From the NCBI GenBank assembly GCA_964187785.1, contig OZ076409.1, forward strand, positions 63,862,001 to 63,926,000: a DNA stretch of 64,000 bases, read 5' to 3'. Position numbers and translations under genes: made by a program. The notes under the pieces were generated by a model. The model did not search any database. It saw only the letters and a list, made by a program, of their open reading frames with translations, and was not told the origin of the DNA. Source of the DNA: Amphiscolops sp. MND2022 (taxonomy: Eukaryota). Each line of letters begins with the position of its first letter. The first letter of the stretch is position 1. Positions 15,435-37,900 of this stretch are shown here, piece after piece.

Positions 15435-16204
15435 CTTGAACTCGAATGGAAGATTACCTGGAACGAAAACGATTAAAACTACCTGGAAAAGAAATGATCT
15501 GTTTTTACCAAGTAAAACAACATATAAGTTAATGAAGGTAATTTGTTCACAAACAACGTATACTGTACGTTTCGAACTGATATGCAGTAAGTAAAATGTG
15601 CCACCAAAAATTGATAAATGAATTTTAAGTGGCAACATGTTGTGTCAAAGTTTGTTTAATAAGATTCCCTCTCTTGCCAATATTCCAGCATGACTCAGCT
15701 TAAAACCTAAAATTGTGAAGTCGCAAGCAGAAAATTGTCATTCGAAAAAGGTACGTCGATAAAAAAGAAACGTCTGCGGAATTAGTGAACCCAGCATGTC
15801 CACAACGTGTCTTCATACTGCCTATAACCTGCCTAGATTACGCAAAAAGTATCATTTGAATATCGGAACGTTTCCTCTACAATCAGAAAAGAGTCTATGC
15901 TCTATCGTTCATACAAGAAATGAAATCGCATCAACGCATTAACGAAAATAAACACTCCAAAAATTGAGCTTCTTAAAATTTGAAGTCTTAAAAACTAACA
16001 ATGCCGCGAACACAAAAACCTTTAGAATCAATTTCAATCAGTTCTTGAATTTGGTAAATTTTGAAACAAAATGTTCAATAATCCAATATTTTGCTCAAAG
16101 AAAGTGACATATGAGAATTATCGTTTCTCTTTCGAATAACATTAAAACAAAGGCAAGATCACAAATGATTCTTTGAAAAGATTTTCGTGGGCCAATTCCA
16201 TTAT

Positions 16205-19200
16205 AAACAAGACTCCCGCTGAGCAGCGAGATATTTTCCGCCCCGAACTGTTGTTCTACAACTACATAAATTTGAGGCTCAAGAATAGCCAATGCACTAT
16301 AAAAACGAAAAGAAGTTCGAAGAAAAAAAAGCTTTGATTCATCGTAGCCCATTTTAAAGGAAACACCTAACATATTATTTCTGCGATAGCTGGCCACTTT
16401 TCCTTTTTGGCACTATGCGACTGATCGAGAGAAGAGGAAATTTTTACCAATGTTTAATGTTTGAGGTTTTCTGTAAAGGAAGTAAGTTTCCCGAGCTTTA
16501 AGGGTGACTTCTTTGTTACTTTTGATCAAATTAAACAGACGAGATTTCTTATTGATTGTGGAAATGACCTCATTTCAGTTTTTTCAGCTCTGTGCATCTT
16601 TCCGAAACTTTCATTCGGTCAAAGAGTACCCTCTTGCTTTCATAGTTGATTTCGGCTTGAGAAAGATTGTTTTGCGAGCTGAAAGTCGTGTCGCCATCAT
16701 AAAACGTTACCGGAAAAATCAAATTTTGGATTTTTTGTTATCTTGATGGGGAAAAAGTGGTTTCCTAGTCTCAGGCGTATTTCTTGAGGTAATCTGAGAA
16801 AATGGTAAACATATGAAACTAGGTCTTTTGCCATATTAGGGAAGTTGGGTAATCCCGGTTCGTTATAATATTGAACATAGTTTCACCAGAAGCGTCAAAA
16901 ATTGGAAAAAAATTGACAACTTTGGGGTCAATTTGAGGAAGTTTTCTAACATGAATCTACAGATGTCTCTTCAAAAACAAGCCTCCTTTACACCGGGTTT
17001 AGCTGTTGTTGACAATTTACACCATCGCTTCTTCACTTCACGAACCCACGAAGAAGCTCGAAACAATTTTTTGGAAGATGTACTCCGTTGGTAGTGATTT
17101 CGCTTGAAGGTTTTGAATAATAAATCTTGGACAAATGAGCTCGAAATTTACGCTTTCAAGTAAAGTTTTTGAAAGTTGTGCTCATTAACTTGTCTGATAT
17201 CTTTTCGAAACGCTGCCATTAGCTACACGTTTCAATCCTGAGCCTATGGTCTTTCTGATTGAAGGTAATTTTCGTAAAGGATCCAAAATTGGGACTATGT
17301 TGTCGAAAACAAAGAAAGTTCTTCGGAAACTTTGACACCTTTGTTGTCAACTCGATGAACTTCATCCCAATTTTCCCCAATTGCGTTATAAATATCTTTT
17401 TGTGTCAACGCACAGGTCATCAGAAGTTATACTCAGAAGAAGTTATATTCTTCAAAAGCTTTCGCGGTATGAACGAAAATTGGGATTAGTTTGTCAATCA
17501 ACGTGCTTTTTTGTTGTCCATGGAATATTGGGTGCTTTTGAGGCCAATTGGAACACAAAAATGCAGTTCTCTCTTCAAAATGGCCTACAGGAGATGCCTG
17601 GACTAGTCATTGTTGAGTGTTTAAAACTATTTTATTCAGGGAAGTAGCTCAAAAATTGTACAAAAAACTACATTGAAATGTAATTTTTTTTCAGTATTTC
17701 CAAATTTTGGGTCATTCTGAGGAAACTTTCAACCTGAAGTTAGGAAATTTGTTTGAAAAGCGTGCTTCAAACCTAGTTTTATTGTGTGGAGCTTTTGGAA
17801 GCTTTTATATTATCGAACTATCCAATCTCAAATAAAAATTCACTGAAAATGTCAGAAAGCGACAAAAATTTCGACATTTTCGCCTTTTTGCGGTCAATTC
17901 TGACTTTTTCCAACCGAAGTCGGCAAAGCCTACTGGATTACGAGTTCAATTCTGACACCAAACCGATTCAAAAAGTACACAATTTGCAGGAAATTGAAAA
18001 TTTTGAAATTTTTCGACAGCTTTTGAGTCATTCTGAAGTGTTTTTGAAACGAAACGCTGCAACGTTTGCTTCAAACAATGTAATGCATAGCTCGCTCAGT
18101 CGCTGTTGAGTTGATTGTATTGGAACTTAGGACGAAATCTCTCCAAAAATTTACAGAAATTGCATCAAAATCGTCAAAAACATTAAAATTTTGTACAATA
18201 TTAGTCAATTTGAGGCATTTTTTTTCAAAGTGAACTTATCTCGTAACGAAAGCTCACCGAAACAACAAGTTTGCCCACACCTTAGACGTTTTAACACTTT
18301 CGTCCACGAAGTCTATCGATATTTCGACAAAAATTGAACAAAAATAGTGAAAATCGGAAAATGTTTCGAAATTTTGTTTTTTTCCCATGTCGATTTTGAA
18401 AACTTTTCGATTCAAAAACTGCCTTTATCTCTTTTTTAGGCTTCCTGGACGACACATTTTGTCCTTGTTGACCCGTTTAGGCTTTACAATTGACGAAGTC
18501 TGTCCTAAATTTGAAAAACAAAATGCATAAAATCCTTGAAATTTGGAAAATTTTTGGGGTTTTCATCATTTTCGGTTTCAATTTGAGGCATTTTCACTTA
18601 GAAAACTGCAGTAAACTCTTCAGAACTTTCTTACTCCACAGCCGCCTTTTCGTTCCTTTGAGAGCCTTTTCAACGTTCCAATCGATGGAGTCTGTCGTAA
18701 ATTTGGGAAAAATGCATAAAATCTTTAGAAATTGGAAAAATTTGGGATTTTTGTCATTTTCGGTATCAATTTGGGAGTTTTCATTTGGAAAGCAGCAATT
18801 ATCACTTCGAAAAAGCCTACTAGACAACGAAGTAGTGCCATACTGAGCGTTTTCCACATTCTAATCCGCGAAGTCTATCGAAAATTTGACTAAAATTGCA
18901 AAAAAAGTTAAAAATCAGGAAATTTCAGTTTTTTGTCATTTTTGGTCGAAATTTGAGACCTTTTTCCTCTGTGAAACAATAATTATCTCTTCAAAGTAGA
19001 CTATTGGATAACGAGTTTGAGCCTTACTGAACGTTTTCAACATTCTAATTTACGATATCTATCAAAAATTGACAAAAACTGCCTTAAGCCTTAAAAAAAT
19101 AGGAAATATTCTCTCTTTTTTGGGGTCTTTTTCGGGTCATTCTGGGGTCCTTGTGGTCAAAAAAAGTCCAGAAATCTTAACAAAAACAAATCGCACGAAG

Positions 19201-19330
19201 CTAAATCTATGTGAGTTGAATTCTATGGGTAACACCCTTAAAGTTAAATATAAATTTGGTGCTTGGCAATTTTGTAAAGAAACTGTTTGATTTAAATATT
19301 TTCCTTTCCCATATGAAATATGGGCGGAAA
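16205..19330. mobile_element. Family C Helentron-like non-autonomous element (~3.1 kb) with internal degenerate tandem repeats
   Basis: AAACAAGAC + hairpin CGCTG-AG-CAGCG + subterminal inverted repeat (subTIR) TTTCCGCCC at the left; GGGCGGAAA at the right. An inverted homologue lies at 45695-47678. Confidence 0.7.
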
Positions 19331-19849: not shown

Positions 19850-20986
19850 GTTGAAAACGTGCCATCAAAAAATGCTTCAAAAAAGTCGAGGAAATCAAAC
19901 GTATTGACTGGGTAAGCTAGAACATCATATGATACAAAGAACAGTTGACTGAACACGAATTGCGAGCAATCCTGATGAGACTCAAGTATTGTTAGTCGAA
20001 AATTGCTACAAGCTCTCAAACATTTTGTGGAATCGAAACTACTGTCAAAAATTTTCCGACAAAAGAACCAGGCATAAAGCGATGGTTATATTGTACTGGA
20101 TCACAACCTTTGCTGTCAAAACTGAATATCCAATTCGTATGTCACACTTCAAACACAACTATAGCGTAGGTGCCTCTTACAAATAACATTGCACTGCTGA
20201 ACAAGGTAACGGTTGCCTTTTGTTCTCTGATACTGATGATTGCGGGCCAAATACAACAGTACGATTATAATAAGGGTGAGAATCAAGCATCCGTTTTGAA
20301 CCTTTACAACATCTACTGCTTTTTGAATATTTATTATAAACTTTTATTGACTGAGTAACTCTACCAAGCGTGATATTTTCTACTTAAACTTGGATGAGAA
20401 AGCAAGATCTTTGGGAACAGCCCGCATGAGGCCAAAATTTCAAAGCAAAACAAAGTGGGGCCTAAACAACACTACATTAGACGACAAAATATCTAGAAAA
20501 ATTCAAATTTTCTTCAAACTACAATAACAAAATTCATATTTTGTTGCGTAGGAAATCGGATAGTTTTTTGAGTATCCTGAAAAACGATTCCATTTCTTCT
20601 CATTAGTTCGATATCGACGCCTTGAGTTGCCTTGAGATGGCACCAATTACGATAACATGTTAGAAACCTACTATGAAACCTAAAGAATTGATGACTCAGT
20701 AGCCCGAGTGACGACGAAACCGAGATCTTCCTTGGACCAAGATGTCACAAAAGAAACACGAACTTTACTGTTGTTCAAGTCACCGGTGGTTGAGCCAATA
20801 TTACCAGTTCGGCCATGCCTGCTAAAAAACACTTTGTCCAAAACGAAGAAATTTGAAAAAACACGGAATGTCAAAACACTTAGGGGATTTTGTCCTCCTT
20901 TATCGAAATTTTCATCTTGTCAAACAAAATCAATTTATCGATGAAGATGCAACAACCAACATAATGGAATCTTTGTCGAAACCTAC
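19850..20986 (+). pseudogene. Highly decayed LINE ORF2 remnant (host site of the LTR insertion)
   Basis: Only weak endonuclease/linker-like fragments (LPWTK). It continues after the LTR element with FKDYFNKIGPIL. Confidence 0.3.
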
Positions 20987-23474
20987 TTTTACGACTTGTG
21001 TCAGGGTCGTTATTTTGAGTAGAGTTGATCCGTACTATTTTCGTCGGGGTATAAAAATACGTTGCTTCATTTTCTGTTTCTTCTACGGTATTATACCTTA
21101 CATTTTCTCCTGTTTCAGGTCTTAGAAGCTTCAACATTTCCTTCTGGGACTCCAGAAGAAGATTTTTGATCTCAGACGTAATCCCCTCCTTGGAAGAAGC
21201 TCTCAGACTCTCCAAGAAACTATTTTCTACCCTAAGAGATTATGGTCTCGACGGACCTGCCACGTCGGTATCTTGGTTCGAAGAACGAGAATTTTTACAT
21301 TTATTGGTGAAATAAAACCTTCAATTACGTTGTCTTCAGCCTCTCGCAGAGTGTTCCTCCTCTTTTGACTCCTTGTTGTTGACATATTGATGAAGGAAAC
21401 TTGTTTCTCAAAGAATTCAATTTTGTCTTTTCTGATTTTTGACAGAGTTGAGATTGAGATGAAGTTTAAGCAAGACAAGTTGAAACAACTGAATTATAGC
21501 GCTTGAAAAGGACTGAGTCCCTTAGCAATAGCAATCCATCATATTTATACCCTCCTAGCATCGTTTGAGTACGAATAAACCCCTAATTTTCCTCGAGCAA
21601 TTAGTCACTTCCTGTATTATTGATGAAAAATGCATTTTGTTCCCGAAGTTGCGTCGACTTTTCGTCAAATTTTGAGACACGACGATATTAATCTAGTATT
21701 AGTCATCAACTATGATCATATCATTTCATTCCGGCGTCCTTTCGTTTCCTCTCAAGCAGGAAGTAGATATTACTTCAGTCTGTCAAACCGGAATTATTTC
21801 CCTGTTTTACTGCTTTGGTTCGTAAGAAACTGACGCTGAGATGACGCTGACGTGAACAACTAATACCTGATATTGAATTTTCACTTGAAGAAAATGCCAT
21901 GACTAATGTTTTCATGCTAGGAAGATATAATAGAAAGATTATAGAATTAGCAACAATTTCCAAAATAATTCCAAACTGAGTGATTATTAATTAACGGAAT
22001 AAAAGCAACGGAACATAGACGCTTGTTGAACTGGAACGCTGAATTATTTAAATTACAACTCTAATCTCGGTTATTGGTACTTCGACTGAAAGTGCTATTT
22101 AGCGACATAATAGCGTTAATTTAACATTTATACACTTTAACAATACACTGTCACCAGATATTACTTCACACATATAGTAATATTCTTGAACGCAAAACAA
22201 CTGACGACGTAACGTCGACACTTTACAAATTAATCAAAGAAACAAAACTTTAAAACCTTTTATCATCCAACTTCAGTCTTACAGAACATATAGTAACAAC
22301 GTGGGTCAATCGCTCATGACACAATACATATGAGCAATGCTCTTTGTCAATCTGATTTAACGCAAAAACTTCGAACAGGTAACTGCTTGATCCTGGAGTG
22401 AACGACGACAAGCTATCGTCTGAATGAGCATTAAAGAATTACAACTTGTACATTAGGTAGTATAAAATACAAAAGCACAAACATGTAAAATTACGTTTCC
22501 AGTACAAAAATACTTCCAATCTATTTTCATTATGATCATAAACTGTGACTTTCATTTATGTTACCTAGAAAACTTCATTTTTGGGGAAAATCGTGACGTT
22601 ATTCAAATCAGTAACATCTTATCTTACGGACGGATGACGCTGATTCCGAAATCTCAATACTTTCCCTGTTAAATTAGCATTCAATTCACACTCATTCCTT
22701 GTACCAACTCACTATGATAGCGTTCGTTTTGCCATTCTGGATGGACTAAGATGGCTTATTCCGATGGATTTCGAACGTAACGCGGACGTACATATTAGTA
22801 TTAGACTTATTCTACCAATATATTGGACGTAGCGTGGATGTAAATTTGGAATGAAACCTAGCTAGCTGCCATAGCTGTGACGTCATATCGTCGTCTGATT
22901 TGGAATACTTTCTAACTATCTAACTAGTAAGTGACGGAGTGCTGACGTCACGATTATAGTAATATTTGAATGTGCCGCTAATATTTGTTTACTTAGCAGT
23001 GAGATATCGTTCTATTTTACATTAATTGCTGTTCAAAATGCAATTAAGTTGTCTTTTCTTAGAAGAGACGTAAATATTTTGGCGTGCCATCTCAAAGTAA
23101 TTTCTGTTTTAGATCTGATTGATCTTCTTTCTCAGGGAAGATTTTGGATATGTTTTCATTTAGTTCGGTCTATGATCCTTTATTCTAGGAGTGTTTTAAT
23201 TTTTAGTTTTCAGGTGGCGAAAGTTCTTTTCTGACGCGACAAAAGCGTCTTGCCGGAAATGCGTGAAATCATTTTGGCCTAATTTATTTCCTGTTCTCAT
23301 TTTCAATTAAAATTTGCGCCAAACGGACGTACATTTGTGTTTCTAGTCACAGCTTATTAAGTTTTAAAGTTGGAATGTTAAGTTACCATCTCGGGAAGCG
23401 TAGATTGCATCCATGTCCCCTCCCGATTGCAATTCGCCTGCAAGTACATCCCAAACCGGGAGCGGGTTGTGACA
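20987..23474 (-). repeat. 3' LTR
   Basis: Direct repeat of 35174-37658, running TTTTACGAC...TTGTGACA. Confidence 0.95.
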
Positions 23475-24099
23475 GGGCCACACTTCTTGGGAGAACGTTC
23501 TTCCCAGGATGACGAGGCATGGGCAACAATGTGGGTAATCTCATCCCGAGTTCTGCTGTGACGTTAGTACTTCGTCTCTCTTCAAGATCGTTCAGCGGGC
23601 TTGTGGTTCTGAAGCTGATTTTCCTGGGTGTTCCCGGCGGCGTGTTGAAGTAAGAAGAAGAGTCTTCCTGGCGTACTATTTCAAGGTATTCCGCTACCTT
23701 ACTGCTTGTTATCGACTTTTCATCGTTTGCCGAAGCTTCTACAACGAATATATCAGAGGACATGCTCTCGTCTGGGCTTTCTGGGGAGTGAGCTATTATT
23801 TTCTCAGAACTTTCCCAATGCGGGTATTGTCTCGATTCCACTGTTTCGAAGCTCGTGTAGGATTCGCTAAGTTTCATTCTTTTGCATTCTGTTTTCAGGG
23901 AGTTTAGAGAAAGGTCGAGAAATTCTTCCTCATCTGCAGTAGCATCCGCCGACGAGTTTAGTATTTCGACAACTATTCTGGGGTATTTTTGCCATCCCTG
24001 GGTAACGGGGTAGAAGCTCTTGTGATCTCGCCTTCCTCCTCGCGTGACAATGAGATGTCGGTCAACTCTCAACTCGTTTACATCTAGTTGATTATTCAT
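23383..24099 (-). CDS. Accessory sense ORF (238 aa, acidic/Ser-rich, unknown function) ending inside the 3' LTR
   Basis: Uninterrupted ATG-initiated ORF that crosses the LTR boundary at 23474. It has no signal peptide or transmembrane segment, so it is not env-like. Confidence 0.6.
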   Translation of the reverse strand: MNNQLDVNELRVDRHLIVTRGGRRDHKSFYPVTQGWQKYPRIVVEILNSSADATADEEEFLDLSLNSLKTECKRMKLSESYTSFETVESRQYPHWESSEKIIAHSPESPDESMSSDIFVVEASANDEKSITSSKVAEYLEIVRQEDSSSYFNTPPGTPRKISFRTTSPLNDLEERRSTNVTAELGMRLPTLLPMPRHPGKNVLPRSVALSQPAPGLGCTCRRIAIGRGHGCNLRFPRW

Positions 24100-24199
24100 C
24101 GTCTTTATGGGATTTCTTTTCTTTGCAACTGTCGTTCGTATTTAATTGTTCCACAATGGATTTCGGATTAATTAGGATTAAGGAGAATATTGGGATAAA

Positions 24200-24560
24200 T
24201 CCCCCCATTCTGATTGGTTAAATAATCGTTTTATTCCTTTTTAATCCTAAGTGTTGACGTTATGGCAACGTCGCGTTTTTATTGGCTGCAAATTAAATAA
24301 TTTCGTTTGACCAAAGTTGTCAACGTTTTGCTGACGTCAATTTCGTTAGCCTTTAGCTATTTTCTGAATTCGTTCACCGTTTTGATGACGTCAATATAGA
24401 TTATAGGATTAACTCTTAACCCTGATAACCTTTTTGTCGACGTTATGCCGACGTCATTTTCTTTGATTTCAGATCAACTTTAGTGTCGACGTTATGCCGA
24501 CGTCAATTTCGTTGGTAATTGGCCAACTTTTAGATTTTGTCACCGTTATGATGACGTCAA
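24200..24560. promoter_or_regulatory. Putative bidirectional promoter with six ~21-bp GTY..CGTTWTGNY(G/A)ACGTC repeats and CCAAT boxes
   Basis: Copies at about 24253, 24319, 24372, 24436, 24485 and 24539; ATTGG at ~24214 and ~24281. It lies between two divergent ORFs. Confidence 0.6.
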
Positions 24561-24615
24561 GTTTGGTTGTTATCTTCTCTTCATGTTCTGTTTTCAGATT
24601 CTTTGCTGTTTCTTG

Positions 24616-27600
24616 ATGGATTCTCATCCGACTACTGCTTCTGCTATTGATCCCGGGGCTCAGAGTGGCCATGAAACACAATGCGTGTTTTCGGAGGGAG
24701 ATGTGCATCAGAGTGACGCGGACGATATCCGTCCACGGGCAGTTGGTAAGTGCTTTTTATTCCCGGGTCCATTAAGCTTTTGTGAATGATACTACTTTCA
24801 GATAGGCTTTTTTGTTCCGTATTTTCACAGCTTAGATTTTCTTGACGCGTCGATGTTGGGAATGTACTTTCTCTTTTTTAGAGTCCAAAGTAGTATCTCC
24901 TCCTCCTCCTGGCGTAGGTTGGGATATTCCGCCTTCGACCATCTTTCCTGTGACCCCTTCTGCGGGACCAGTTCGTGTTCCTTGTGAGTCCTCTGCTCCT
25001 GTCTCTGGTGATGAGACTCCTGTCGTGTCACGCTCGAAACCTGACGTTACCTTTCCAGAGTTGCTTGCTGGCTCTTCTTGCGGAGGCGAGATGACATCCC
25101 CCCGCTGGTGGAGATGACGTCCTTGGAGCGGCAGTTCCAAGAACTGGGATCCTTGGCCAGACCTCCAGTTCTCCCCGATTGTCTTGTTTCCTGCCTGAGT
25201 TCGGGAAAACTCGGGGAAAACTCGCTCTGCAATGGCGCAATCAGAATCCAGAAAGAGAGGTAAAATTGAGGTGTTTCCTTGGTTCCTACGTACTGTCTAA
25301 TTGGTTGTTTTGTCTTCTTGGTGATTGTGCTGTCAGTAATATGACATGTTGACGTTATAGTTGCGTCCACTGGTGCGGAAAAAACGGGAACAGGGTCGTC
25401 TGGTAAGAGAAAACGACAAGTGCGCGTCCAGACAGCGAACTTGCAGCTTGCTCAGCTTACTGTGAGCGGTAATAAAACTTTCTTAATCTTGTAAAGCTAA
25501 GACTGGGGGTTCGTGTGGCAGTTCAGATGTAAATTTGGTTTGTTCTGTTGATTCTGGCGACTGTGCTGCGCAAGGTATCTCTGGAGTCAGCGATTTAGTT
25601 GTTCCTGGGACTGAACGTGCTGCAGTTGGTCCTGTTCTAGCAAATGAGTATCTGTATCATGATCGTGGCCATTATTTGCCATTGTAATGGGGCGTTATGT
25701 AATCTTTGTCTAAGTAGTTTGTTGGTTTGCTAGTATCGTAGTTATATTTTGGGTGACGTTAAGCCGTAGTCATGTCGTTTCATAGGAATGCAAGACCTAT
25801 TGTCTCGGGTGGGAAGCAGTCTGGAGGCGGTCGCCTTGCGTGAGAGTTCCGTCAGAAAGTACAGCAGTCGACATCTTTTGCGAAAAGACATGGTGGGCGA
25901 CCATCCTGTCTTTATCTTGTTTGTCAGTAGGGCCAGCAACGGGTCTTCGTCGCGCTTTCATTGCATGATCTGTAAGCGCGATGTTTCAATGCAGTCACGG
26001 GAGGCAAGAGAATTCGTCCGTCATTTTGCCGCCGATCGCCACTGGTCACGAGATGTGGCATACAGAGTACAACATGGTATGCCAGTCTTTGACCAATTGA
26101 TGAAGCCTCTCGAACTGACGTCGGAGCAGCGGGCTGAATACCTTAGCCAGGATGCAGTCGAGAAGGATGAGGGGTTCAGCTTCCCGGAGGATTTGTTGCC
26201 CGCATGCACCCGGGTTAACTCGACAATTCCTCTTTTCACCATGGTGAATTGCGTTTCCGAGTTCTGTAGATTGGGTGGCAGCTACGTTTTGCTTCGCAAA
26301 CTGTGGGGCAATTTCCGTGCCACTTTGAGACCTGACAATCCCTTATACAACCTTCGTTGGGACCTTCTTGAGACACTGGTTAGTAAGTTTTATAGTGATG
26401 AATTTTTGTGGACGTTTCGTGGTCGGCATGTCAAGTTGTTGACAGTGGAGTGAGTTGGGAGATTTGTGTTTTAATCGTTGATTTGTTGTGCCTTTTTTCC
26501 TCGGGTTCTGCGCTCCGTCATCTCTCGAGTTACTGCTTTCAATTGCTACAGCGTGCGTTTCGAAGAGCATTCAGATGGGCAGTACTGTTTCGTTCTGACT
26601 TGGGAGGGCAATACCCTACTGGACATCTGCGTCAAGGTTGAGCCCCTTGGTCAGCGAGTACCTCAGTCTGAGTTGTCGTCTTTATCGCGCATCGTAACAA
26701 GTCTGCCTTCAGCTCCCTTCCCCATCAGTATTCTTGGCACTGGTCCTTCAGTTCTACGGGTGCTCAGCGACGAGCGTAGTGATGAGCAACGGTTTGTGTA
26801 TGCACGAGAATTCTCTTCTGTTGTGTTCCTGTACTGCTATCGTGTGGCCTATCAGGAGATTTTTGGACTAATGGAGGTCACTACCATGGTCGATTTCCTG
26901 GCGATGCGTCTTCGTGGGCCTTTGCAAGAGCCCTGGATGGAGAAGTTGCCCGAACTTCGTCGCTGTGTCGTCGCTGGGAAGGTGTCCTTCAATGAACTGC
27001 GCGGGTTCGTGACGGAGCTAATGTCAATCTGGGAGACAGTCCGGGAGTACGTCCGTTACACGGGCCCCCGTCACGTTAAGTGTGAGTCTGAAAAGGTGGG
27101 TATAGATTTTGTTTCAGCGATCTATTGGTAGTCGTACAGTAGAGTATTGTCACTGTGTCGGTTGGGCCATCATGCTGTTGTTATTTAGATGCGAGGCACT
27201 GACACACTTGTATATTCCGAGACGACGAACAAGCTGCGACTGGGAATGCTGCTGCACGTTCTTGACTTGTGTAAGTTGTGCTGTTTTGAACCTTTCCTTC
27301 CTCCTTTTCCTTTTTCATTAGTGGTATAGGTCATTTAGTGACTTGGGTAAGGTGATCGTTGGTGTAGTTATGTTTTCGTCTAGGTGGCGGACTTTGCTGC
27401 TTATTCTTGGTTTTCTCTTGTGTTTAGATCACTGCACTTTCAAGAAACAACGGTCCGGGCGGGTTTATTACACATTTCATGCGTATAGCGAGGTCAGACA
27501 ATTTGAGTACTGCCTTCTGTCTCGCAGTCGCAAGTTATCAAGTCTGACCCCACTTGACGATTGGGAATCTTATATGGATTCCTCAAAGCTGGATTCTTTT

Positions 27601-28734
27601 AGGAGGGTCAGCAGTGACGATTTCCTCAACAATCACGAGTTCGGAGTCGAGTTACATCGCTCAAATACTGGCGAGGTGTGCGAATTCCGCAATCGTTGCC
27701 GCGAGTTTGTGGATCGTCTGGTTGACGTGATCTTGAGCCAGCAGGTCGTGTCTTCTGATTTCCTCCAGAGGCTTTATTGCTTATGTCCCGAGCTGCTGCT
27801 TGAAGGTGACGATCGCCACGTCTTTCGGTTATTCTCTCGTCTTGTTCGTGTGCTCGAGCGTTGTGGTTGTCTCTCTGGCTGTGATGCCCGAGCCAGTCTC
27901 GAAGAGTTCACCACTTTTGTTGTCGATGCTAGCACGCGGCATCGTGAATCAGAGAAGAGTGCGGAGCAGATTGAAGATGTCACTACTTATCTGCTTTCTG
28001 ACTACAGTTTCATGTCGCGAAGGAGTCTGGTGCGGGTCTTGGAAGTGTGTTGTTTGGTCATAGATCGTCCTCAAAAGAAGATGCCCAACATTGAAATTGA
28101 CCTGAAAGACTGTGCTGTTTCTGTTGCCGTTGTGACGTCGTCCCTGAGGTGCGTTCATAGTCTTGTGTCCTCTCCTGGGTACAAGCAGGGCGCTTTCTTC
28201 ACGCAAGGAACAAAGGAGAGTGTTCGCTATGCTATTGCTAGTAGTCGTGATTTCATGTCATGTGCTAGTTTCGATCCATGGGAGAGTGTGTCGTGTGGCG
28301 ATCGTTCGGCCTTTGTCAAACAGTATTCCTCAGTTTTTGATGCTTACTTGAGCCGCAGGAAGAGCGAAGCTACGAAACAGCTGCACAATGCAAATCGACA
28401 ACCGCGTCACGTTCGTTTCTCTGAGTCAGGTGGTTCGGGCGGGTCGAGTGTTTGTAGTTCTCCTCGTACTGTGCTGCCTGCTTCCTCGTTTGCTGTTGCT
28501 TCTCCGGGATCGAGTTCCGAGGCTGGGACGTCAGGGCAGCATACGTATACTGCTGAGTCTGTACTGGTTGCTATTCTGGGACAAAGGAAAGGGGCAAAAC
28601 CATATGGTAAAGAGTCAACTGTGAGGAAAGAGGGTTTGACAAAAGGTACAGGTAAAGATCTCGAGAAGGAGCAAGAGAAAGATGCGAGAAAGAGTTCAAA
28701 GCCGGCTAAAAAACGACCGGGTGCCAAATCGTGA
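24616..28734 (+). CDS. Spliced antisense gene inside the retrotransposon; zinc finger plus degenerate hAT-transposase-like protein
   Basis: Phase-consistent exons 25786-26378, 26505-27095, 27189-27270 and 27428-28734 give ~856 aa from M25788. Upstream exons are likely from ATG 24616 (donor 24746, acceptor 24881). It contains the zinc finger CMICKRDVS..EFVRHFAADRH and a basic C-terminal tail. The acceptor at 26503-04 is GG instead of AG. Confidence 0.75.
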
Positions 28735-29042
28735 AGCAAGTGAAATTGATAACTGAAACTTTGGCGTAGCTGATGTTTGGAACTGTAGAGATAGTTTTTG
28801 TTGTTTTTCACTGCAGCCTCATCTATTGGGTTGTATTCATTGATTATTTGTTACCTTGTTAGTAGATCGTCCTATTTAGCTGGAGTAAAAAAATTAGATG
28901 ATGGTAGATGGTTCCCCAGCAAAACAGTATAGAAGCGTTTGGAGTCGGAAAAAAAACAAGTGAAGAAAAAGGCCGTAGTATGCCAAAATTTAAATTTGTC
29001 AGGTCGGTTCGATCTGGACACTTGATAATGTCTTTTCCCTTT

Positions 29043-32000
29043 TTAGTGAGTCGTAGTCATAGCGTCGAGTCGTCTGAAGTCAGGATTTGCGTTAGGTTTA
29101 GGATTGGGTGGTAATTTGTACTTTGCTATTTTTCTTGGATTGCATCCGACAACTCTGGGCGGTAATTTCGAGTATAGGTGGACTTTCGATGAGTGGGGGC
29201 GACGTATATATGGAAATATCCCCCACGTCTGTAGTGAGGTTCGAAAAGTCCGACGACGACGACGCTACGCCATTCGTGTCTTCAGTATGATTATTCCGTG
29301 TCTGCTGCGTCATCGTTTCGTCATTTGTGTTCGCTACTTTTTGTGTCACTACTTGTTGATTGCTTTCCGCACCTCTTGGCGTCTCATGTTCGTCACTTTG
29401 CTTTCCGAACTCCATTTCCCACGAAGCTGCGTACCACCACTCGTTGTGCGACACTTTGATGTCTGGATCCGGAAGATATTCATTTGATCGTACTGTGACG
29501 TCGGACATGCGTTGTTCCGGCACTTAGGGTCGTATGCGAATTCTGTGTAGCGTTTGTGTATATCTCGTGCCAATTTTTCGTATCGTGTAATTATTATTTG
29601 AGAGCACTTTGATCACTATGCACGGTCCTATCCAGATACAGTCTTGGAATGCGAATTTTGTCAATTGATTGTCGGCTTTCGGGTTGAGTATGTAGCAGTA
29701 GTCATAGATCTTCAGTGGAGCTGCGGACGCTTTGCGGTCGTAATATTTTTTGTTTTTGAGATAAGACAGCATGATGTTGTCCTTCGCTGTCGCTCGCACT
29801 TCGTCATTTTGTTTTTTGAGTTGATCTGCTATGTCCGAGTTAGGCGTAGTTTTCCATTTTGGCTTGATGCCCAGTTTTAAATCGAGAACGTTGTAGGGTA
29901 TACGTCCGTGGAATACTGTAGATGGTTCGCAACCCAAATTTTCATGATATGTTGTATTATAGTTCATTACCGCAACTTGGACATATTTGTGCCACATTGA
30001 GCGTCTTTCTCCCGTCGAAAGTTTTAGAGCAGTTTTGATTGAAGCATGAGTTCTTTCCAAAATTCCGATCGTTTGTGCAAGCTTCGTATACGCGTGGCTA
30101 ATTTGGATTTCGAGTATTTGGGCTATTTTGGTGACAACTTCTGATCGGAATTGTGACCCTTAATCTGATAGGATCAATGTTGGCAAATATGCGTGTCTTG
30201 TCATGACATCGACAATACATCGTCCGATTGTTTTTGCTGTGCTATTCTGCGTTGGATATGCGAATAGATAACGTGAAAATACATCAATCATCGTAACGAT
30301 GTTTTGGCATCCTGCAGAGTTTGGTAGATTCGGCAAAATGTCGGTTTCGAGGATGTCGTCCGGACCTAGGATGTGTTCTGTATTGTTGATCACCTTCGGT
30401 CTGATTTGACTGCTGTTGATTCGCTTGTATTTCATGCAGTCTTCGCATTGCATTACCAACTGTCTGATTCTTTTTGCTAGTACAGGGTAGTAATACTTTG
30501 ATCGACATTCTTGGATCATTTTTGTGATCCCTGGGTGCTTTCCCATTTGTCCGTGAATTGCTTTTAAAAGTTCTGTAATCAAATGCTCGGGAATTAGTAT
30601 TTGGTGATGTGTGACTTGACCGCATTCTCCGTAGTATTTGCGCATTAGTATTCCTTCTTTGACTATGAGTCTGTTTTCGTGGACTAGGAGACGCTTTGCT
30701 GTCGGATCAGTTTGTAAGAGGTGTTTGTCAATTTCTTCCCATATCAGTTTTCTTTTGATTGCCTTGAATACTAGATTTGAATCTTGTTCGACTCTGATAC
30801 GCGCATCTTCCTTTATGGCTCCAAAGGTGTATGATGCTTTGTTTATTGGGATTGGTGTTGTTTCTTTTATGGCCAGTTTTATTTTTGTCGTCTCTTCGTC
30901 GCGCGCGTTTTGTCTGGCTTGTTCATTTTGTGAGAGGATTTCTTCTTCCGTTTCTATCGTTTCGTCGGGAAGGAAGAAAAGTTGTTCTTCATCTGCGACG
31001 TCTGTTGATTGTAAACTAACTTGTATTGGGCGGATTGTAAAGTCGTCTCGGATTTTTAGTTCAACTCATTCTTCGGGATTATGTTCAATTCGTGACAGGA
31101 AGTCAGCCGCTGGATTTTGCGTACCGACTACGTGCATTATGTGGAAGCTGAATTGTAGCACATAATCACAGGCGTTCCACAGCGTAGGCGGTATGGATTT
31201 TGTTTGAAAAAAGCGCGTGACTGACATATTATCGGTCATTACGAGTGTCGGTAGTGTCGCTTCCCACAGTATTTGACTGTATTCTAAAAATGCGTGATAG
31301 ATGGCTAGAAATTCTTTACAGTAGATTGACATTTTTAGTTGAGCTGGGGAAAACACTTTCGATCCGGATGCGACTGGAGCAAACGCTTTCTTTTTTGAGT
31401 TGAATTTTTTGTCGGTATCTTCTTCGATCATAAGTGCAAAGCCGGGGCGCGAAAACTGGCGTCCGTCATTAGGACGTATTGGCATCCTGTGATTGGTTGT
31501 TTGAGCGCCAATCCGCAGGCTTGCGTCAGCGCTGCGTTGTTCACTTTGTAGTGGTGAAGTAACTCTTCTGTGACTTTGATTTGATTGTCTGCTTTCAACA
31601 GTTTGTAGAATCCGAGCAATTTTCAGACAATCGCGGGATGTAGTTGCGATAATAATTGACAAAGCCGATGTATTTTTGTACTTGCTTTTTTGATTTTGGA
31701 AATCTCATATTTGCCAGGAATTTCTGAATTTTATGAACTTGGGGGGGGGCAATTCCCTGTAGTGTGATTGTTCTTCCAAGGAATTCTACCTCAGTCACTC
31801 CAAAAAGGCATTTTTCTATAGTTAATTTGAGTCCTGCTTGTCTGATTCAATCAAAAACGGCTCGGATGTTGCGTATCAGTTGCGTCACTGAGTTGGCGGC
31901 AATTTCGAGGTCATCCACATATTGCGCGCACTGGTCTGCTTTGATCACTTTATCCAAGTATTCTCTCATGAAACTTGAAAATGCTGAGGGGGCTCTGCTC

Positions 32001-33695
32001 AGTCCTTGTGCTAGACGTTTGTAGGCAAGCGTCCTACTTGCGAAGTTGAAGGCTAGCATTTCAATTGATCTCTGATCTGCCATTTGTAGGCAATGTTATG
32101 CCTGAGAGCAGTCTAATTTACAAAACAACTTCTTTCCAGCTAGGTGTTGAGCTGCATCTGACAAAGTGACAACCGGATGATTATTATTGATCTAATCGTC
32201 TGAGATTAATGCGTTTCTTTTTCGTAAGTCGACAAGTAGACGCAACTTGCCATTCGGCTTGCGTTGTGCGAAAATTGGGTCGTTGATATGCCGTATCTAT
32301 GCATTAGCGACAACTCAACCGTTAGGTCTTCTTTCAAATTTATTGGTACTGACAAGCTTTGCGTATAAATTGGGCGTTCGTCTCTCGGACTCAATTTTAC
32401 TTTGAAATTGTTGTTAATTCCAATGTCAAGGCGATGACGCGCAAAGATGTCGTTGTGTTCAACTATAGTTGCTTTCTGTCATTGCCTTCAATTTGAGAGC
32501 CTTCCCATTGGAACATGTCGAGGAATTTCTTTCTAGATCCTTGGTCTTTTGTTGGATCCAGTTCTTCTTTCTTGATGAGTTCACGAATTTCCTTCAGTAT
32601 TCGTCGTTGGATTGGCTTATGCTCTTCTTCGTTTACTGGGTTTTCGGGAGTGGGGAACCAAAGGTTCTTGTCATTTTGTTCGGTTTCGCTGGATTTCATG
32701 AATTCATTGACGTACATGTGAGTGTCATCAGGATCATCTAGCAACTTGAGTGCGGCGATGTCAACTGGTCGGATTTGTTTTGTGTCTTCGGGTTTGAGGA
32801 TTTGTAGTTCCGCCAGTTTTGTATGATTCTTTATTGTGTGGGGGAAATCCGTCAAATTGGTGATTCGAATGTTGAGTCTTTTATTGTGGGCGGTCGCTAG
32901 CGCTGGTGCAACGATGATTCTTGCTGTTTCATCGAATTGGGGTAGTGGTTGTTCCGCGCCAGTGACGTCATTCGTAATTGTGGTGATAGGTGTATGTTCC
33001 AATGTTGAATTGGATGTCCGCTGTGGCTATGGGTTGCTCTAATTGTGCGTTTGCGCATTCAATTTTGAAAGGAGGTTGGGGGTACTCCTTGATGACGCAA
33101 CTATCACTATTCATTTTGATGTGTTGTGATCTGATCAGGACATGGCGTTGATGAACGCGCTTGAGTCGACGAGTCCATCCATTGTTATTTCGCCGAATTC
33201 AAATGGAAAATACAGCATTCTGCGTCTTTTCTTGAGTACTATGGTCGAGTGAAGTGGTATGCATGTCTCTCCGTCTTTCTCCATTACATCCTTTTTGATT
33301 GAATTAAGTGAGGCGGGGAAGTCGTCTGAAAAGATAGGTGTCTTAGTGGAGTCATTAGTATTTTCCTTAGTTGGTTGGGACGATGATTGGTCGTCAGGGG
33401 CGTTTTCGTTCTGTTCTACTTGTGTTGCAATGGGCTGTGGTGACGAGGGCTGGTCAGGAGGGTTCATGTGTTGCTTATGGTCGCCTCTGTAGTCTTCATC
33501 TGGTATAAGTTTTACCTTGTTCGATTTGTGGATGTAATTTACTTATAGAAGCGATTGCTGGTCGTCTCAGCCAGTCCTCCAATGATGTGCCATTGCATTC
33601 GATTGTTGTATCATTTGCGTATTTGGTAGGGGGATCTTCCGTTGAATACGCCCTCGCGTCTACTGTTTCCCCGAAGCGCAGGCGCGGCGTAATTA
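29043..33695 (-). pseudogene. pol: pol (protease, dUTPase-like spacer, reverse transcriptase, RNase H, integrase) with multiple stops and frameshifts
   Basis: LVDSSA (PR), YVDD (RT), LMTDAS (RH), H..HPG..CEDC, IDVFSRY, LILSD and ERTHASIK (IN), WIGP (GPY/F). Confidence 0.95.
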
Positions 33696-33702
33696 GTTTT
33701 TT
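33645..33702 (-). promoter_or_regulatory. -1 ribosomal frameshift signal at the gag/pol junction
   Basis: A AAA AAC (33702-33696) lies immediately before the gag stop TAA and is followed by a GC-rich stem TACGCC...GGCGTA. The -1 frame is open downstream. Confidence 0.75.
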
Positions 33703-33852
33703 GAGTCGTCGACAGATGTAGCTGTCGTTGGTTGGACGGAGTTATTCGTCTTTCGTTCTTGTGTAGGTCGCGGAACGTCGGCAGAGTTGGCTTCATTCCA
33801 ACAATCTTCTGTTTCATGTGGTTTGCCGCATGTATCGCATTTGAGCAGTTTG

Positions 33853-34305
33853 CATTACGATACATATGCCGCAACGAACTAGCAAGATCTTGCTAGTTCG
33901 AATAACAGTCAATAAAAACGCGTTAGTATTTCAAATACGCGTTACGTGTTTTGCTCGTTACACAGTGTGATTTGGCGTTACGCGTAGTGATCAAAATGCA
34001 GTAAATGACTACTTTACACTCTCTACAATTACGTACTTTGGTTGGTTTCCCCTTCACACAAGAATGGAAGCATCGTTTAGAGTCATTCTTACTCACAGTG
34101 TATACCAAAATTCTTTACTGGTTTCCACTTTTCTCTCTAATTACGCTCAATGATTACAATCCGCACTTGATGATTACACAGTGCATCTCAATTCGCGATG
34201 AACACGATGCACGTTTTGACTAGAATACGGTTCGCTCTCGTTTTACTGAAAATACTTTTTACACTTGATGATAAATTCCACTTTTGCGGCATATGTATCG
34301 TAATG
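33853..34305. mobile_element. 453-bp MITE inserted in gag (CMC/CACTA-like termini)
   Basis: Perfect 22-bp TIR CATTACGATACATATGCCGCAA and 2-bp TSD TG. Excision restores the gag frame (QSAGKLLKCDTC). Confidence 0.9.
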
Positions 34306-35160
34306 TGCCTGCACTCTGGTTGGTTTGTCCGTTATTTTTCGTCGTCTGTTGCCATTTGTCTCTTTTCATTTTTCTGCATTCTGCCTTGTAATGTCCAACT
34401 TTATTGCAGTGAAAGCAGTACCCCTTTTTGGTGTTCTGCGCAGTATTGTCGACTTGTTTGGGCTCAGTCTTCGATGGAGCTGGTTCTACTTTGTTTAGAG
34501 GTACCAGAGTTACCTCGTCTGGCGCACCAAGGCCGTTAAGCCTCATTTCTCTTTCTAGGTGGAGAATGATGTCGTTGTAGGGTTTGTCCTCAAGGTACGC
34601 CTTATAAAGTACTTTCTTTACATGATCTGGCATTTTCGCGTAAATTTCCTTGTCAAGAAAATGTTGAGCTTCCGAACCGAAAGCCTCGTTTGCGGCTTTT
34701 TGGAGGACGTCCAAGAATTCGTGGAGTTTCTGTGTCGAGGGGTCAAATTTAAGCGCGTCCCATTCACATCTGGTTTTGGCCATTGATAAGTAGTCTCCAA
34801 AACGACGTTTAAAATCGTCATGATTTCGTCTAGCGAATCTTTTTTCGAGTCTTCAAGGTTACAGAACGCTTGTAGGGCGTCTCCTTTGAGTAAGGAATGA
34901 AAATATTTGATTTTCTGGATTTCCGTAAGGTGGGGGTACATTTTTATGTTATTACGGAAAAGATCTTCAAAAAACTCGAACTTTTCCGATTTTCCGTCAA
35001 ATGTTGGTAGTGATGCCGTTAAGGCTTTTGGCATCGGCAGCGCAGTGCTGTCATTCTTTTCTGATGCAAACAGAGTTCTCGCTAATACTGGGCGTTCTTT
35101 TGACGTTGGTTGGCTTTGAGACCGCGCTTTTGTTCTTTTTGGTTTGTGGAGTCGGTTAAA

Positions 35161-35173
35161 ACTCCTGTCACCA
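35161..35173 (-). other. Primer-binding site, tRNA-Leu-like
   Basis: TGGTGACAGGAGT lies directly after the 5' LTR end and resembles the complement of tRNA-Leu 3' ends. Confidence 0.8.
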
Positions 35174-37658
35174 TGTTACGACATGTGTCAGGGTCGTTAT
35201 TTTGAGTAGAGTTGATCCGTACTATTTTCGTCGGGGTATAAAAATACGTTGCTTCATTTTCTGTTTCTTCTACGGTATTATACCTTACATTTTCTCCTGT
35301 TTCAGGTCTTAGAAGCTTCAACATTTCCTTCTGGGACTCCAGAAGAAGATTTTTGATCTCAGACGTAATCCCCTCCTTGGAAGAAGCTCTCAGACTCTCC
35401 AAGAAACTATTTTCTACCCTAAGAGATTATGGTCTCGACGGACCTGCCACGTCGGTATCTTGGTTCGAAGAACGAGAATTCTTTACATTTATTGGTGAAA
35501 TAAAACCTTCAATTACGTTGTCTTCAGCCTCTCGCAGAGTGTTCCTTCTCTTTTGACTCCTTGTTGTTGACATATTGATGAAGGAAACTTGTTTCTCAAA
35601 GAATTCAATTTTGTCTTTTCTGATTTTTGACAGAGTTGAGATTGAGATGAAGTTTAAGCAAGACAAGTTGAAACAACTGAATTATAGCGCTTGAAAAGGA
35701 CTGAGTCCCTTAGCAATAGCAATCCATCATATTTATACCCTCCTAGCATCGTTTGATCACGAATAAACCCCTAATTTTCCTCGAGCAATTAGTCACTTCT
35801 TGTATTATTGATGAAAAATGCATTTTGTTCCCGAAGTTGCGTCGACTTTTCGTCAAATTTTGAGACACGACGATTTTAATCTAGTATTAGTCATCAACTA
35901 TGATCATATCATTTCATTCCGGCGTCCTTTCGTTTACTCTCAAGCAGGAAGTAGATATTACTTCAGTCTGTCAAACCGGAATTATTTCCCTGTTTTACTG
36001 CTTTGGTTCGTAAGAAACTGACGCTGAGATGACGCTGACGTGAACAACTAATACCTGATTTTGAATTTTCACTTGAAGAAAATGCCATGACTAATGTTTT
36101 CATGCTAGGAAGGGATAATAGAAAGATTATAGAATCAGCAACATTTTCCAAAATAATTCCAAACTGAGTGATTATTAATTAACGGAATAAAAGCAACGGA
36201 ACATAGACGCTTGTTGAACTGGAACGCTGAATTATTTATATTAGAACTCTAATCTCGGTTATTGGTACTTCGACTGAAAGTGCTATTTAGCGACATAATG
36301 GCGTTAATTTAATATTTATACACTTTAACAATACACTGTCACCAGATATTACTTCACACATAAAGTAATATTCTTGAACGCAAAACAACTGACGACGTAA
36401 CGTCGACACTTTACAAATTATTCAAAGGAACAAAACTTTAAAACCTTTTAACATCCAACTTCAGTATTACAGAACATAGAGTAACAACGTGGGTCAATCG
36501 CTCAATCGGTCAATGACACAATACATATGAGCAATGCTCTTTGTCAATCTGATTTGACGCAAAAACTTTGAATAGGTAACTGCTTGATCCTGGAGTGAAC
36601 GACGACAAGCCATCGTCTGAATGAGCATTAAAGAATTACAACTTGTACATTAGGTAGTATAAAATACAAAAGCACAAACATGTAAAATTACGTTTCCAGT
36701 ACAAAAATACTTCCAATCTATTTTCATTATGATCATAAACTGTGACTTTCATTTATGTTACCTAGAAAACTTCATTTTTGGGGAAAATCTTGACGTTATT
36801 TAAATCAGTAACATCTTATCTGACGGACGGATGGCGCTGATTTCGAAATCTCATTACTTTCCTTGTTAAATTAGCATTGAATACAAACTCATTCCTTGTA
36901 CCAACTCACTATGATAGTGTTCAATTTATCATTCTGGTCGGACTAAGATAGCTTATTTCGATGGATTTTGGACGTAACGCGGACGTACATATTAGTATTA
37001 GACTTAGTCTACCGATATATTGGACGTAGCGTGGATGTAAATTTGGAATGAAATCTAGCTAGCTGCCATAGCTGTGACGTCATATCGTCGTCTGATTTGG
37101 AATACTTTCTAACTAGCTAACTAGTTAGTGACGGAGTGCTGACGTCACGATTATAGTAATACTTGAATGTGCCGCTAATACTGGTTTTTTTTAGCAACGA
37201 GATATTGTCCTATTTTACATTAATTGCTGTTCAAAATGCAATTAAGTTGTCTTTTCTTAGAAGAGACGTAAATATTTTGGCGTGCCATCTCAAAGTAATT
37301 TATGTTTTAGATCTGATTGATGTTCTTTCTCAGGGAAGATTTTGGATATGTTTTCATTTAGATCAGTCTATGATCCTTTATTCTAGGAGTGTTTTCAGGT
37401 GGAGAAAGTTCTTTTCTGAAGCGACAAATCGTCGTGCCGGAAATGCGTGAAATCATTTTGGCTTATTTTATTTCCTGCTCTCATTTTCATTCAAAATCTG
37501 CGCCAAACGGACGTACATTTGTGTTTCTAGTCACAGCCTATTAAGTTTTGAAGTTGGAATGTTAAGTTACCATCTCGGGAAGCGTAGATTGCATCCATGT
37601 CCCCTCCCGATTGCAATTCGCCTGCATGTACATCCCAAACCGGAAGCGGGTTGTGACA
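35174..37658 (-). repeat. 5' LTR
   Basis: TGTTACGAC...TTGTGACA, adjacent to the PBS. Confidence 0.95.
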
Positions 37659-37663
37659 CCTAC

Positions 37664-37900
37664 AGTAATGAGTTGACAAAAAAACTGACTTTCCCAAAAC
37701 TGAAATATCAAAGCCAGCTATGGAAGGCAGAATAAAGAGAAGTTTTCCAAAAACGAAAAAACTATAGATGCTAAACTCAAACATTACTTCTGGATACTAG
37801 GCCGAACACCCTGAAATTCAACCAATATTCAAAACTCTGAACAATGACACATTCAAGGACTACTTCAATAAAATTGGTCCCATTCTGTTGAAAGTGCGGC
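37664..37900 (+). pseudogene. LINE ORF2 remnant (endonuclease-RT linker)
   Basis: NNDTFKDYFNKIGPIL resembles the 'FN.FF..IG..LA' motif of CR1/L2/Jockey-group LINEs. Confidence 0.4.

Follow-up and report, generated by a model that had tools for sequence, protein, structure and literature searches.

A large family of Ty3/Gypsy retrotransposons in Amphiscolops sp. MND2022 carries, on the strand opposite gag-pol, a spliced accessory gene whose protein very probably derives from a hAT DNA transposase, to judge by its predicted fold, and is quite probably catalytically dead, to judge by alignment and model together. The best overall explanation—to which we give a probability of roughly 0.55—is that a hAT gene was captured and is now an accessory regulator of its own element.

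The window analysed (64,000 nucleotides; contig OZ076409.1, positions 63,862,001 to 63,926,000) contains one such element, 16.7 kb long, with a 5-bp target-site duplication (TSD) and LTRs that are 95.8% identical over 2497 columns. Its parts, in window coordinates, are these:

20982..20986 and 37659-37663, no strand: left and right copies of the TSD, CCTAC, read directly from the sequence
20987..23474, minus strand: 3′ LTR, ~2.49 kb, 95.8% identical to 35174-37658
23383..24099, minus strand: orfM, a second accessory ORF, low-complexity, in the same sense as pol
24130..24597, no strand: conserved stretch of non-coding DNA that separates the two divergent accessory genes, containing CCAAT boxes and, at 24253-24558, six copies of a 21-bp repeat
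24598..24745, plus strand: first coding exon, acidic, ATG at 24616 (acceptor AG in 35/40, donor GT in 35/40)
24844..24851, no strand: palindrome GACGCGTC within the first coding intron, a candidate cis-site
24882..25259, plus strand: Ser/Pro-rich exon, clearly coding to 25085, with 25086-25259 putative
25361..25468, plus strand: short exon; the intron that follows, 25469-25550, is confined to the near subfamily
25551..25643, plus strand: short exon (acceptor AG in 14/14 near copies, donor GT in 38/40)
25786..26378, plus strand: core exon A, which encodes a C2H2-type zinc finger and a helical domain
26475..27095, plus strand: core exon B, predicted to hold RNase H strands and the first part of the helical insertion domain, with no conserved catalytic Asp
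27189..27270, plus strand: core exon C
27428..28734, plus strand: core exon D, encoding more of the insertion domain, extra helices and a hAT C-terminal region that lacks the Glu helix
29050..35173, minus strand: gag-pol, decayed, with DUF1759 gag, CCHC knuckle, RT, RNase H and integrase
35174..37658, minus strand: 5′ LTR, from comparison of the LTR pair

The carrier is assigned to Ty3/Gypsy by its TG..CA LTR ends (the left TG is eroded), its short TSD, and a primer-binding site adjoining the 5′ LTR. The order of its pol domains—protease, RT, RNase H, integrase—is also that of Ty3/Gypsy (PR-RT-RH-INT in intact relatives). The last codons of orfM fall within the 3′ LTR. The ORF has no Pfam match, but it has a homologue in 38/40 clade-1 loci (pN 0.25, pS 0.74), and at the same position most loci of the other clades have an ORF of 217–351 aa. 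An Rfam search of 20900-37700 returned no match.

The accessory gene lies between pol and the 3′ LTR and runs from the ATG at 24616 to a stop at 28734, with at least seven introns and a product of ~1,050 aa. Its splice junctions are conserved across copies, which at the level of sequence confirms the gene model and the spliced antisense gene perceived in the sequence-only reading. Donors 26378/9 and 27095/6 are GT in 39/40 and 40/40 other copies, respectively, and acceptor 27188/9 is AG in 40/40; the intron of junction 27270/27428 has GT at 27270/1 in 33/33 of the copies that possess it, and AG at 27427/8 in 32/33. Third-position periodicity in column conservation ends at the intron edges. Two of the junctions originally proposed, 27095/27189 and 27270/27428, are therefore borne out by conserved GT and AG. 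For the third, 26378/26505, the donor stood and the acceptor did not: 26504/5 is AG in 1/40 copies, and what had been taken for an acceptor mutated from AG to GG is coding sequence. The real acceptor, 26474/5, is AG in 38/40 copies and AA in the window copy, and so the core comprises 866 codons rather than ~856, although it is indeed free of stops. The exon 25551..25643 also has non-canonical sites on both sides in the window copy (TG at 25549-50, AT at 25644-45); with three such sites, this copy is evidently decayed.

At the front of the gene, a conserved acceptor precedes the first coding exon, and a non-coding exon thus likely lies upstream of 24598. This coding exon has pN 0.26 and pS 0.68, and first exons are 19–29% Asp+Glu in 8/8 copies examined. 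The Ser/Pro-rich exon has a conserved donor-like site at 25085; the part up to this site, 24882-25085, is free of stops in 31/32 rows, and the frame through the entire stretch is kept in just 14/32. At the other end, core exon D closes with a disordered basic tail, a possible NLS.

We examined 80 genomic loci, the top search matches rather than a random sample, and in all 80 the accessory gene stands tail-to-tail with integrase. All 80 thus show the arrangement that defines an aORF-3R, an antisense gene located between pol and the 3′ LTR and kept in most copies. None of these loci holds a free-standing copy, the flanks of the gene run on into retrotransposon in the aligned copies, and no annotated or longer, fused form of the protein turned up in a search. 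Three clades share the position, and their integrases are just 40–60% identical. The core exons are under purifying selection, as read from substitutions in 36 pairs of 9 copies (pN 0.19–0.26 against pS 0.72–0.80); the checks once suggested, of dN/dS and of presence across copies, accordingly gave pN well below pS and 80/80 loci. An intact core beside a riddled gag-pol, as first described, is true of the window copy, whose pol contains as many as 9 stops, along with several changes of frame, and whose accessory core has no stop. It is not true of the family: over 40 copies integrase carries 51 lesions in 20,289 codons and the accessory gene 59 in 27,847 (p = 0.39), and the contrast is thus peculiar to this copy, because the accessory gene decays as fast as integrase. 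In 54 pairs with integrases at least 95% identical, accessory exon D is 48–99% identical (44/61 rows kept, 17 left out as broken or short matches). Comparison of the copies shows, as far as genomic sequences can, that the accessory gene diverges fast and is swapped between near-identical integrases.

The hAT origin is argued from an AlphaFold model of a single-frame relative, 23–35% identical to the window exons (pLDDT 88.9, pTM 0.75). Hermes was its best match in all three fold searches. With Foldseek, 9/9 matches at E <= 0.001 were Hermes, at probability 1.00; in a structure search of 48,161 chains Hermes came top (Z 12.1, 402 aligned, rmsd 5.7), followed by ISCth4 (6.5) and RAG1 (6.1); and six Hermes entries set against the model gave Z 12.1–13.3. 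The match is moderate (TM 0.25–0.37 by query length, rmsd 5–6 Å, 9–14% identity), with model residues 186–687 aligning with Hermes 133–609; in the model, as in Hermes, an alpha-helical insertion domain divides the RNase H fold. The named ESM Atlas neighbours at 0.90–0.94 are mostly hAT-derived, the nearest named clusters being ZBED5, FAM200, GTF2IRD2, ZNF862 and C17orf113. The hAT likeness originally suspected is, in short, supported by the predicted structure and by these neighbours. Core exon D folded alone gave pLDDT 59, no fold match and an Atlas best of 0.81. Sequence searches were negative: Pfam returned no family above cut-off for the window exons, for 65 relatives of exon D, for 20 distant relatives or for any of 13 full-length members; PDB sequence searches gave no match; genome searches with PF14291 and PF25431 scored nowhere, even on the controls, and so carry no weight; an HMM run against 108 ORFs from 40 host hAT loci matched none of them; and hhalign against host hAT elements did no better than a reversed control, the profiles in both of these last comparisons being shallow.

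The CxxC..H-x5-H finger reported at the outset is present in 27/29 exon-A rows, and zinc ligands are kept in 27/29, 12/13 and 16/18 rows. The motif, CxxC-x14-16-H-x5-H, is modelled as two strands and a helix; it has no Pfam BED match, and the fold searches barely covered this region. Catalysis by Hermes requires D180, D248 and E572 (PMC2533014). With positions assigned by secondary structure and motif analogy rather than by residue-level superposition, the DDE triad is not conserved in the accessory family: column 231 is R, Q, E, V, H or K; column 289 is Asp in 4/57 rows with a letter; strand 1 and the post-strand-4 position have no conserved Asp; and the position of the hAT Glu helix is a predicted loop in the relative's model. 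hAT transposases have a CxxH motif after the second Asp (PMC4763223), and the family alignment has no conserved Cys/His pair of this kind in columns 314-330. The loss of catalytic motifs first seen in the window copy appears, then, to hold across the family. Other acidic columns are well kept toward the C-terminus (E597 in 75/87 rows, D618 in 73/86, D/E at 604 in 82/87), and column 657 is Asp or Glu in 57/81 rows with a letter.

What might such a protein bind? The block 24130..24597 is likely, from its sequence features, to be a bidirectional internal promoter; column conservation is 0.75–0.85 over 24120-24479, with no codon periodicity. Its 21-bp repeat occurs in 38/40 clade-1 loci and, at the same place, in 0/20 loci of other clades. 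The repeat is constant across clade 1, where the proteins differ by up to half, and so fits poorly with one target per variant. The intron palindrome GACGCGTC is exact in 50/60 loci of all three clades, at the same position every time; it occurs once in the window and nowhere else in 600 kb of loci. A search for a conserved RNA fold around it found none.

The history we propose begins with an ancestral Ty3/Gypsy element that would have acquired a hAT transposase gene together with its introns, antisense to gag-pol. Kept as an accessory gene, it would encode a protein predicted to hold the zinc finger and the transposase fold, with the active site lost. Transcription may start from the internal promoter block, 24130-24597, and the introns would survive, as the genomic RNA represents the opposite strand. 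By analogy with known systems, the odds somewhat favor a DNA-binding regulator of its own element, most likely one that activates it sequence-specifically or counters its silencing, much as TnpA serves Spm, here across transposon classes. Such a protein would bind the element's own non-coding DNA and so maintain transcription against host silencing, with the acidic, disordered N-terminus perhaps acting as an activation or recruitment domain. More tentatively, at slightly less than even odds, we entertain a fuller version: a whole-transposase module that reads cis-sites, counters silencing, diversifies in an arms race, loses introns through reverse transcription and has a lineage extending beyond the host genome. 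As part of that version, the disarmed hAT family would be a swappable specificity module on a shared Gag-Pol chassis, reading its own cis-sites. If true, a retrotransposon lineage has domesticated a whole class II transposase.

A protein of the same origin might instead serve integration, by binding cDNA ends or integrase, by tethering the pre-integration complex to chosen chromatin, or by shielding the ends. The entire transposase scaffold is kept, beyond the finger, and in Hermes that scaffold holds DNA ends; the basic tail and the swapping of variants between integrase backbones would also suit. We nonetheless think this unlikely: copies lie on all 13 large contigs, and there is therefore no single target locus; the protein would come from a separate antisense transcript, outside Gag-Pol; and the accessory variants diverge while integrase stays nearly unchanged. 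Less likely again is that such a protein represses its own element or suppresses rivals, keeping copy number down or silencing competing families. A DNA-binding protein may be a repressor or an activator, transcription of the antisense strand can by itself damp gag-pol RNA (PMC7264820), and fast divergence is also consistent with conflict between elements, but the acidic N-terminus better fits activation and the family is very abundant, with thousands of first-look candidates.

Catalysis, whether nicking or end processing, might survive in a rearranged active site, for which the kept acidic columns E597, D618 and D/E 604 would be candidates; those columns sit on helices outside the RNase H strands, the strand-1 and strand-4 positions have no conserved Asp, and Hermes needs all three of its own residues, which makes this improbable. 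It is a shade more improbable that the fold match misleads, or that the source was a host gene already domesticated from hAT, of the ZNF862, C17orf113 or FAM200 type. There is no sequence link to the host hAT elements examined, the Atlas neighbours are largely domesticated families, and many introns suit a host gene; set against this, Hermes scores ~6 Z units above the next fold, no free-standing copy occurs among the 80 loci, and a host intermediate would alter the path taken but leave the origin as it is. That a hAT element simply nested here and is carried along as a passenger we hold to be very improbable, even in a host rich in hAT elements (150 scored matches to PF05699). The window has no TIR or 8-bp TSD around the gene, as had been said—only 10 chance 10-mer pairs and a best flank match of 4 of 8—and the exons are under purifying selection. 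The gene has the same placement in LTR elements in 80/80 loci, across three clades with integrases 40–60% identical, and deep trees match, all of which upholds the early view that it was captured rather than nested.

Hermes itself (PDB 4D1Q, 8EDG, 2BW3) shares with the accessory protein a predicted N-terminal zinc finger and an RNase H core into which a large helical domain is inserted. In the accessory protein, by contrast, DDE and CxxH are not conserved, an acidic N-terminus and C-terminal helices are added, and its gene has neither TIR nor 8-bp TSD and resides in a class I element. In position the gene resembles the antisense ORFs of plant Ty3/Gypsy elements (Grande gene23, RIRE2, Retand TRP28/PF04195), which also lie between pol and the 3′ LTR. 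These have their own promoter, are kept in most copies, and are thought to encode nuclear regulators (PMC7264820, PMC11963269). Their origin is not established, and their dissimilarity to other elements is said to lend no support to nested-element origin (PMC7264820). The Amphiscolops gene differs in having a traceable origin, a ~1,050-aa product and at least seven introns, and a Pfam search found no PF04195 match to its protein.

Spm TnpA and the VANC proteins of VANDAL elements offer a possible functional analogy: fast-diverging accessory factors encoded by the element, with a repeat array in its non-coding DNA. Both serve plant DNA transposons. Catalytically degenerate transposases serve as transcription regulators, and TnpA is of transposase descent (10.64898/2026.08.24.746577); the words 'retrotransposon', 'LTR' and 'gypsy' do not occur in the preprint. 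The tandem repeats to which VANC proteins are directed vary from one related element to another (PMC5735166). As regards such differing targets, the 21-bp array is clade-specific yet constant within clade 1, and the palindrome is common to all clades. The plant mobile domain is common to Gypsy and MULE elements, that is to class I and class II, but it is not a transposase, and its MULE copies were captured from host genes (PMC5418596). A literature search with little cover of subscription journals and none of Repbase turned up no LTR retrotransposon reported to carry a gene derived from hAT.

DAYSLEEPER is a host gene domesticated from hAT. ZBED5, FAM200, GTF2IRD2, ZNF862 and C17orf113 likewise re-use the transposase scaffold with no transposition; these are fixed host genes, whereas here a second kind of mobile element, present in very many copies, would profit. 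What antisense extra genes do in LTR retrotransposons, and where they come from, is an open question; a 2020 review saw no support for descent from nested elements (PMC7264820). The present family would be a traceable case in which a DNA transposase was domesticated by another transposon class and not by the host, and the path by which transposases become transcription factors would then cross from one transposon class to another. It also offers a varied panel of proteins that are candidates for sequence-specific DNA binding, along with candidate sites, and a many-copy natural series for precise intron loss beside a reverse transcriptase. In a distant clade the core is one uninterrupted frame of 870–918 aa. 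The intron after core exon C is precisely absent in 7/40 copies, and such precise losses might arise when the element's reverse transcriptase copies spliced antisense mRNA.

A complete LTR retrotransposon, oriented along the window's minus strand, contains the accessory gene. The LTRs of this carrier, ~2.49 kb each, are 95.8% identical to one another; a CCTAC duplication flanks the element on both sides, and a primer-binding site adjoins its 5' LTR. Pfam finds pieces of gag, RNase H and integrase in the window copy, and in intact relatives pol is arranged as protease–RT–RNase H–integrase, which makes the carrier a Ty3/Gypsy element. The interval from integrase to 3' LTR holds the antisense gene, a non-coding block that is conserved, and another ORF, on the sense strand:

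20987–37658, minus strand: carrier retrotransposon
23383–24099, minus strand: low-complexity second accessory ORF, subject to purifying selection and oriented divergently to the hAT-like gene
24130–24597: conserved non-coding block, with CCAAT boxes plus an array of 21-bp repeats
24616–28734, plus strand: accessory gene, with core exons A (25786–26378), B (26475–27095), C (27189–27270) and D (27428–28734)
24844–24851: palindrome GACGCGTC, ~30–35 nt upstream of the first coding intron's acceptor

In the window copy of the second ORF, codon periodicity shifts near 24000, which may point to a change of frame there.

We compared the accessory gene with 40 further copies taken from its own genome, the top matches of genome searches. 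Homology stops at the proposed introns, which vary in length while the exons do not, and third-position periodicity ends at the intron edges. The donor at 26378/9 is kept in 39 of the 40 copies, and the donor at 27095/6 and acceptor at 27188/9 in all of them; the intron 27271–27427 is precisely missing from seven (L021–L027), in which reading runs uninterrupted through the junction codon. The acceptor placed at 26504/5 by the sequence-only reading falls in coding sequence, with AG there in only one copy of 40. The true acceptor lies 30 nt further upstream, reading AG in 38 of 40 copies and AA in the window copy, and the core is therefore 866 codons long rather than ~856. Four shorter 5' exons contribute ~180 residues more. 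The window copy is decayed, since three of its splice sites are non-canonical. At 25086–25110 a donor-like site reads GC in 15 near rows and GT in 17 far rows; after it comes a C-run that varies in length, and downstream of this the frame is unstable. The stretch 25086–25259 may contain an intron, or reflect alternative splicing or slippage.

Searching 1.84 billion representatives with a profile yielded 310 matches and an 890-aa single-frame relative, and the genome contains a whole clade of such relatives. Their core is one open frame of 870–918 aa in 12 of the 14 loci fetched, and exons A, B and D of the window align to these 12 in order and in one frame (E 1e-16 to 1e-30), which confirms the splicing from genomic sequence rather than from RNA. 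In two protein-collection relatives, homology stops at the same exon A boundary, suggesting that the intron at this boundary is ancient and that the single-frame clade has lost it. The two relatives match the Amphiscolops genome at most at 39% and 33%, and the family thus likely occurs in other organisms too.

The accessory gene is real, conserved and under selection. Its core exons have pN of 0.19–0.26 and pS of 0.72–0.80 (36 pairs of 9 copies), with synonymous sites near saturation. Stops and frameshifts number 2.1 per 1000 codons in the core and 2.5 in integrase (p = 0.39), and both genes are open in several relatives; the contrast drawn earlier between an intact core and a riddled gag-pol is thus an accident of the window copy, not a family trait. 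Accessory and integrase trees have three deep clades in common, and the identities correlate at 0.88 (946 pairs; 44 of 61 rows retained). The accessory gene varies far more than integrase within clades, and it has been exchanged between backbones. Between L084 and L093, loci of other clades, integrase is 99% identical and exon D 62%; L090 shows module exchange along with them. Compared with clade-1 copies L033 and L040, the window integrase is nearest L040; the window accessory gene groups with L003–L020.

The protein has no Pfam match and no PDB sequence match, and neither HMM nor profile links it to host hAT elements. Exon D folded alone was uninformative. The full core of the single-frame relative L086, folded with a 133-row alignment, gave a confident model (pLDDT 88.9, pTM 0.75), and all nine Foldseek matches at E ≤ 0.001 are to the hAT transposase Hermes (probability 1.00, best E 5e-5; TM 0.25–0.37 by query, 0.34–0.54 by target). 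An independent search of 48,161 chains also placed Hermes first (Z 12.1, 402 aligned, rmsd 5.7; model 186–687 on Hermes 133–609), ahead of ISCth4 (Z 6.5) and RAG1 (Z 6.1); six Hermes entries gave Z 12.1–13.3. ESM Atlas neighbours are hAT-derived families at 0.90–0.94. Descent from a hAT transposase, as first proposed, is well supported by the predicted structure.

Hermes is reported to require D180, D248 and E572 (PMC2533014), and also a CxxH motif (PMC4763223). With positions placed by secondary structure, without superposition, the family alignment has no conserved Asp in strand 1; after strand 4 it has Gly in 46 of 57 rows and Asp in four. The CxxH motif is absent from the alignment, and the segment corresponding to the Glu-helix region of host hAT proteins is shorter and a predicted loop. 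The zinc ligands are kept. Catalysis has likely been lost, in agreement with the sequence-only reading; the predicted Hermes-like fold and the missing motifs together place the protein as hAT-derived, yet outside the active hAT transposases.

What, then, might it do? The parts of the protein are a zinc finger, a scaffold of transposase type, an N-terminus that is acidic and disordered, and a basic tail. We favor, at roughly 0.55, sequence-specific binding of the protein to non-coding DNA of its own element, by which it would keep that element active. The gene would be transcribed from the conserved block; its introns would persist since the genomic RNA is of the opposite strand, and their precise losses would stem from copying of spliced antisense mRNA. 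Candidate binding sites are the clade-specific 21-bp array and the first-intron palindrome. The array is constant across clade 1, which counts against a one-variant-one-target scheme. Of 60 loci (L001–L040 and L081–L100), 50 have the palindrome in their first intron, and it occurs nowhere else in these loci; it is shared by clades with proteins only 25% identical, and might serve as a branch point, be bound by a dimeric DNA-binding protein, or act as a signal for RNA dimerization. Directly upstream of it, the first coding intron of L081–L094 has a small hairpin with a palindromic loop and one apparent compensatory change.

Of the other roles such a protein might have, integration or end-binding is a distinctly weaker candidate, and repression weaker still. 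Residual catalysis is improbable; slightly more so is an origin by way of a host gene, or a misleading fold match. That the gene is a passenger insertion is scarcely credible: integrase lies tail-to-tail with it on the opposite strand in 80 of 80 loci, though these are top matches and may have passed over rare free-standing copies, and the window search bore out the earlier report of no flanking TIR with an 8-bp duplication.

Plant Gypsy elements carry antisense extra ORFs in the same place, flanked by pol and the 3' LTR; their origin is described as unknown and a nested-element origin as unsupported (PMC7264820). The Retand TRP28 domain is given no known role (PMC11963269). Transposase-derived regulators are reported from DNA transposons and hosts (10.64898/2026.08.24.746577; PMC5735166), and the plant mobile domain is described as common to Gypsy and MULE elements but is not a transposase (PMC5418596). 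Passages of a giant-transposon review (PMC6431247) and of an Arabidopsis atlas of element products (PMC13547354) contain no comparable case, nor does the wider literature searched, within incomplete coverage.

Elsewhere in the window are:

14056–15644, minus strand: pair of ORFs, the first of which has weak, sub-threshold matches to P-loop NTPases
38755–39462, minus strand: ORF with a weak Tc3-type HTH
45900–47700 and 51200–54740: arrays of 172–184-bp repeats, some inverted relative to 16200–19300
51916–52809, minus strand: fragment of a host gene encoding a CBM_21 domain (E 1e-27), similar to a glycogen-targeting phosphatase subunit

Perfect, spacer-less palindromes at 7883–8624 (arms of 371 nt) and 11962–12077 (arms of 58 nt) are possibly assembly artefacts or foldback elements.
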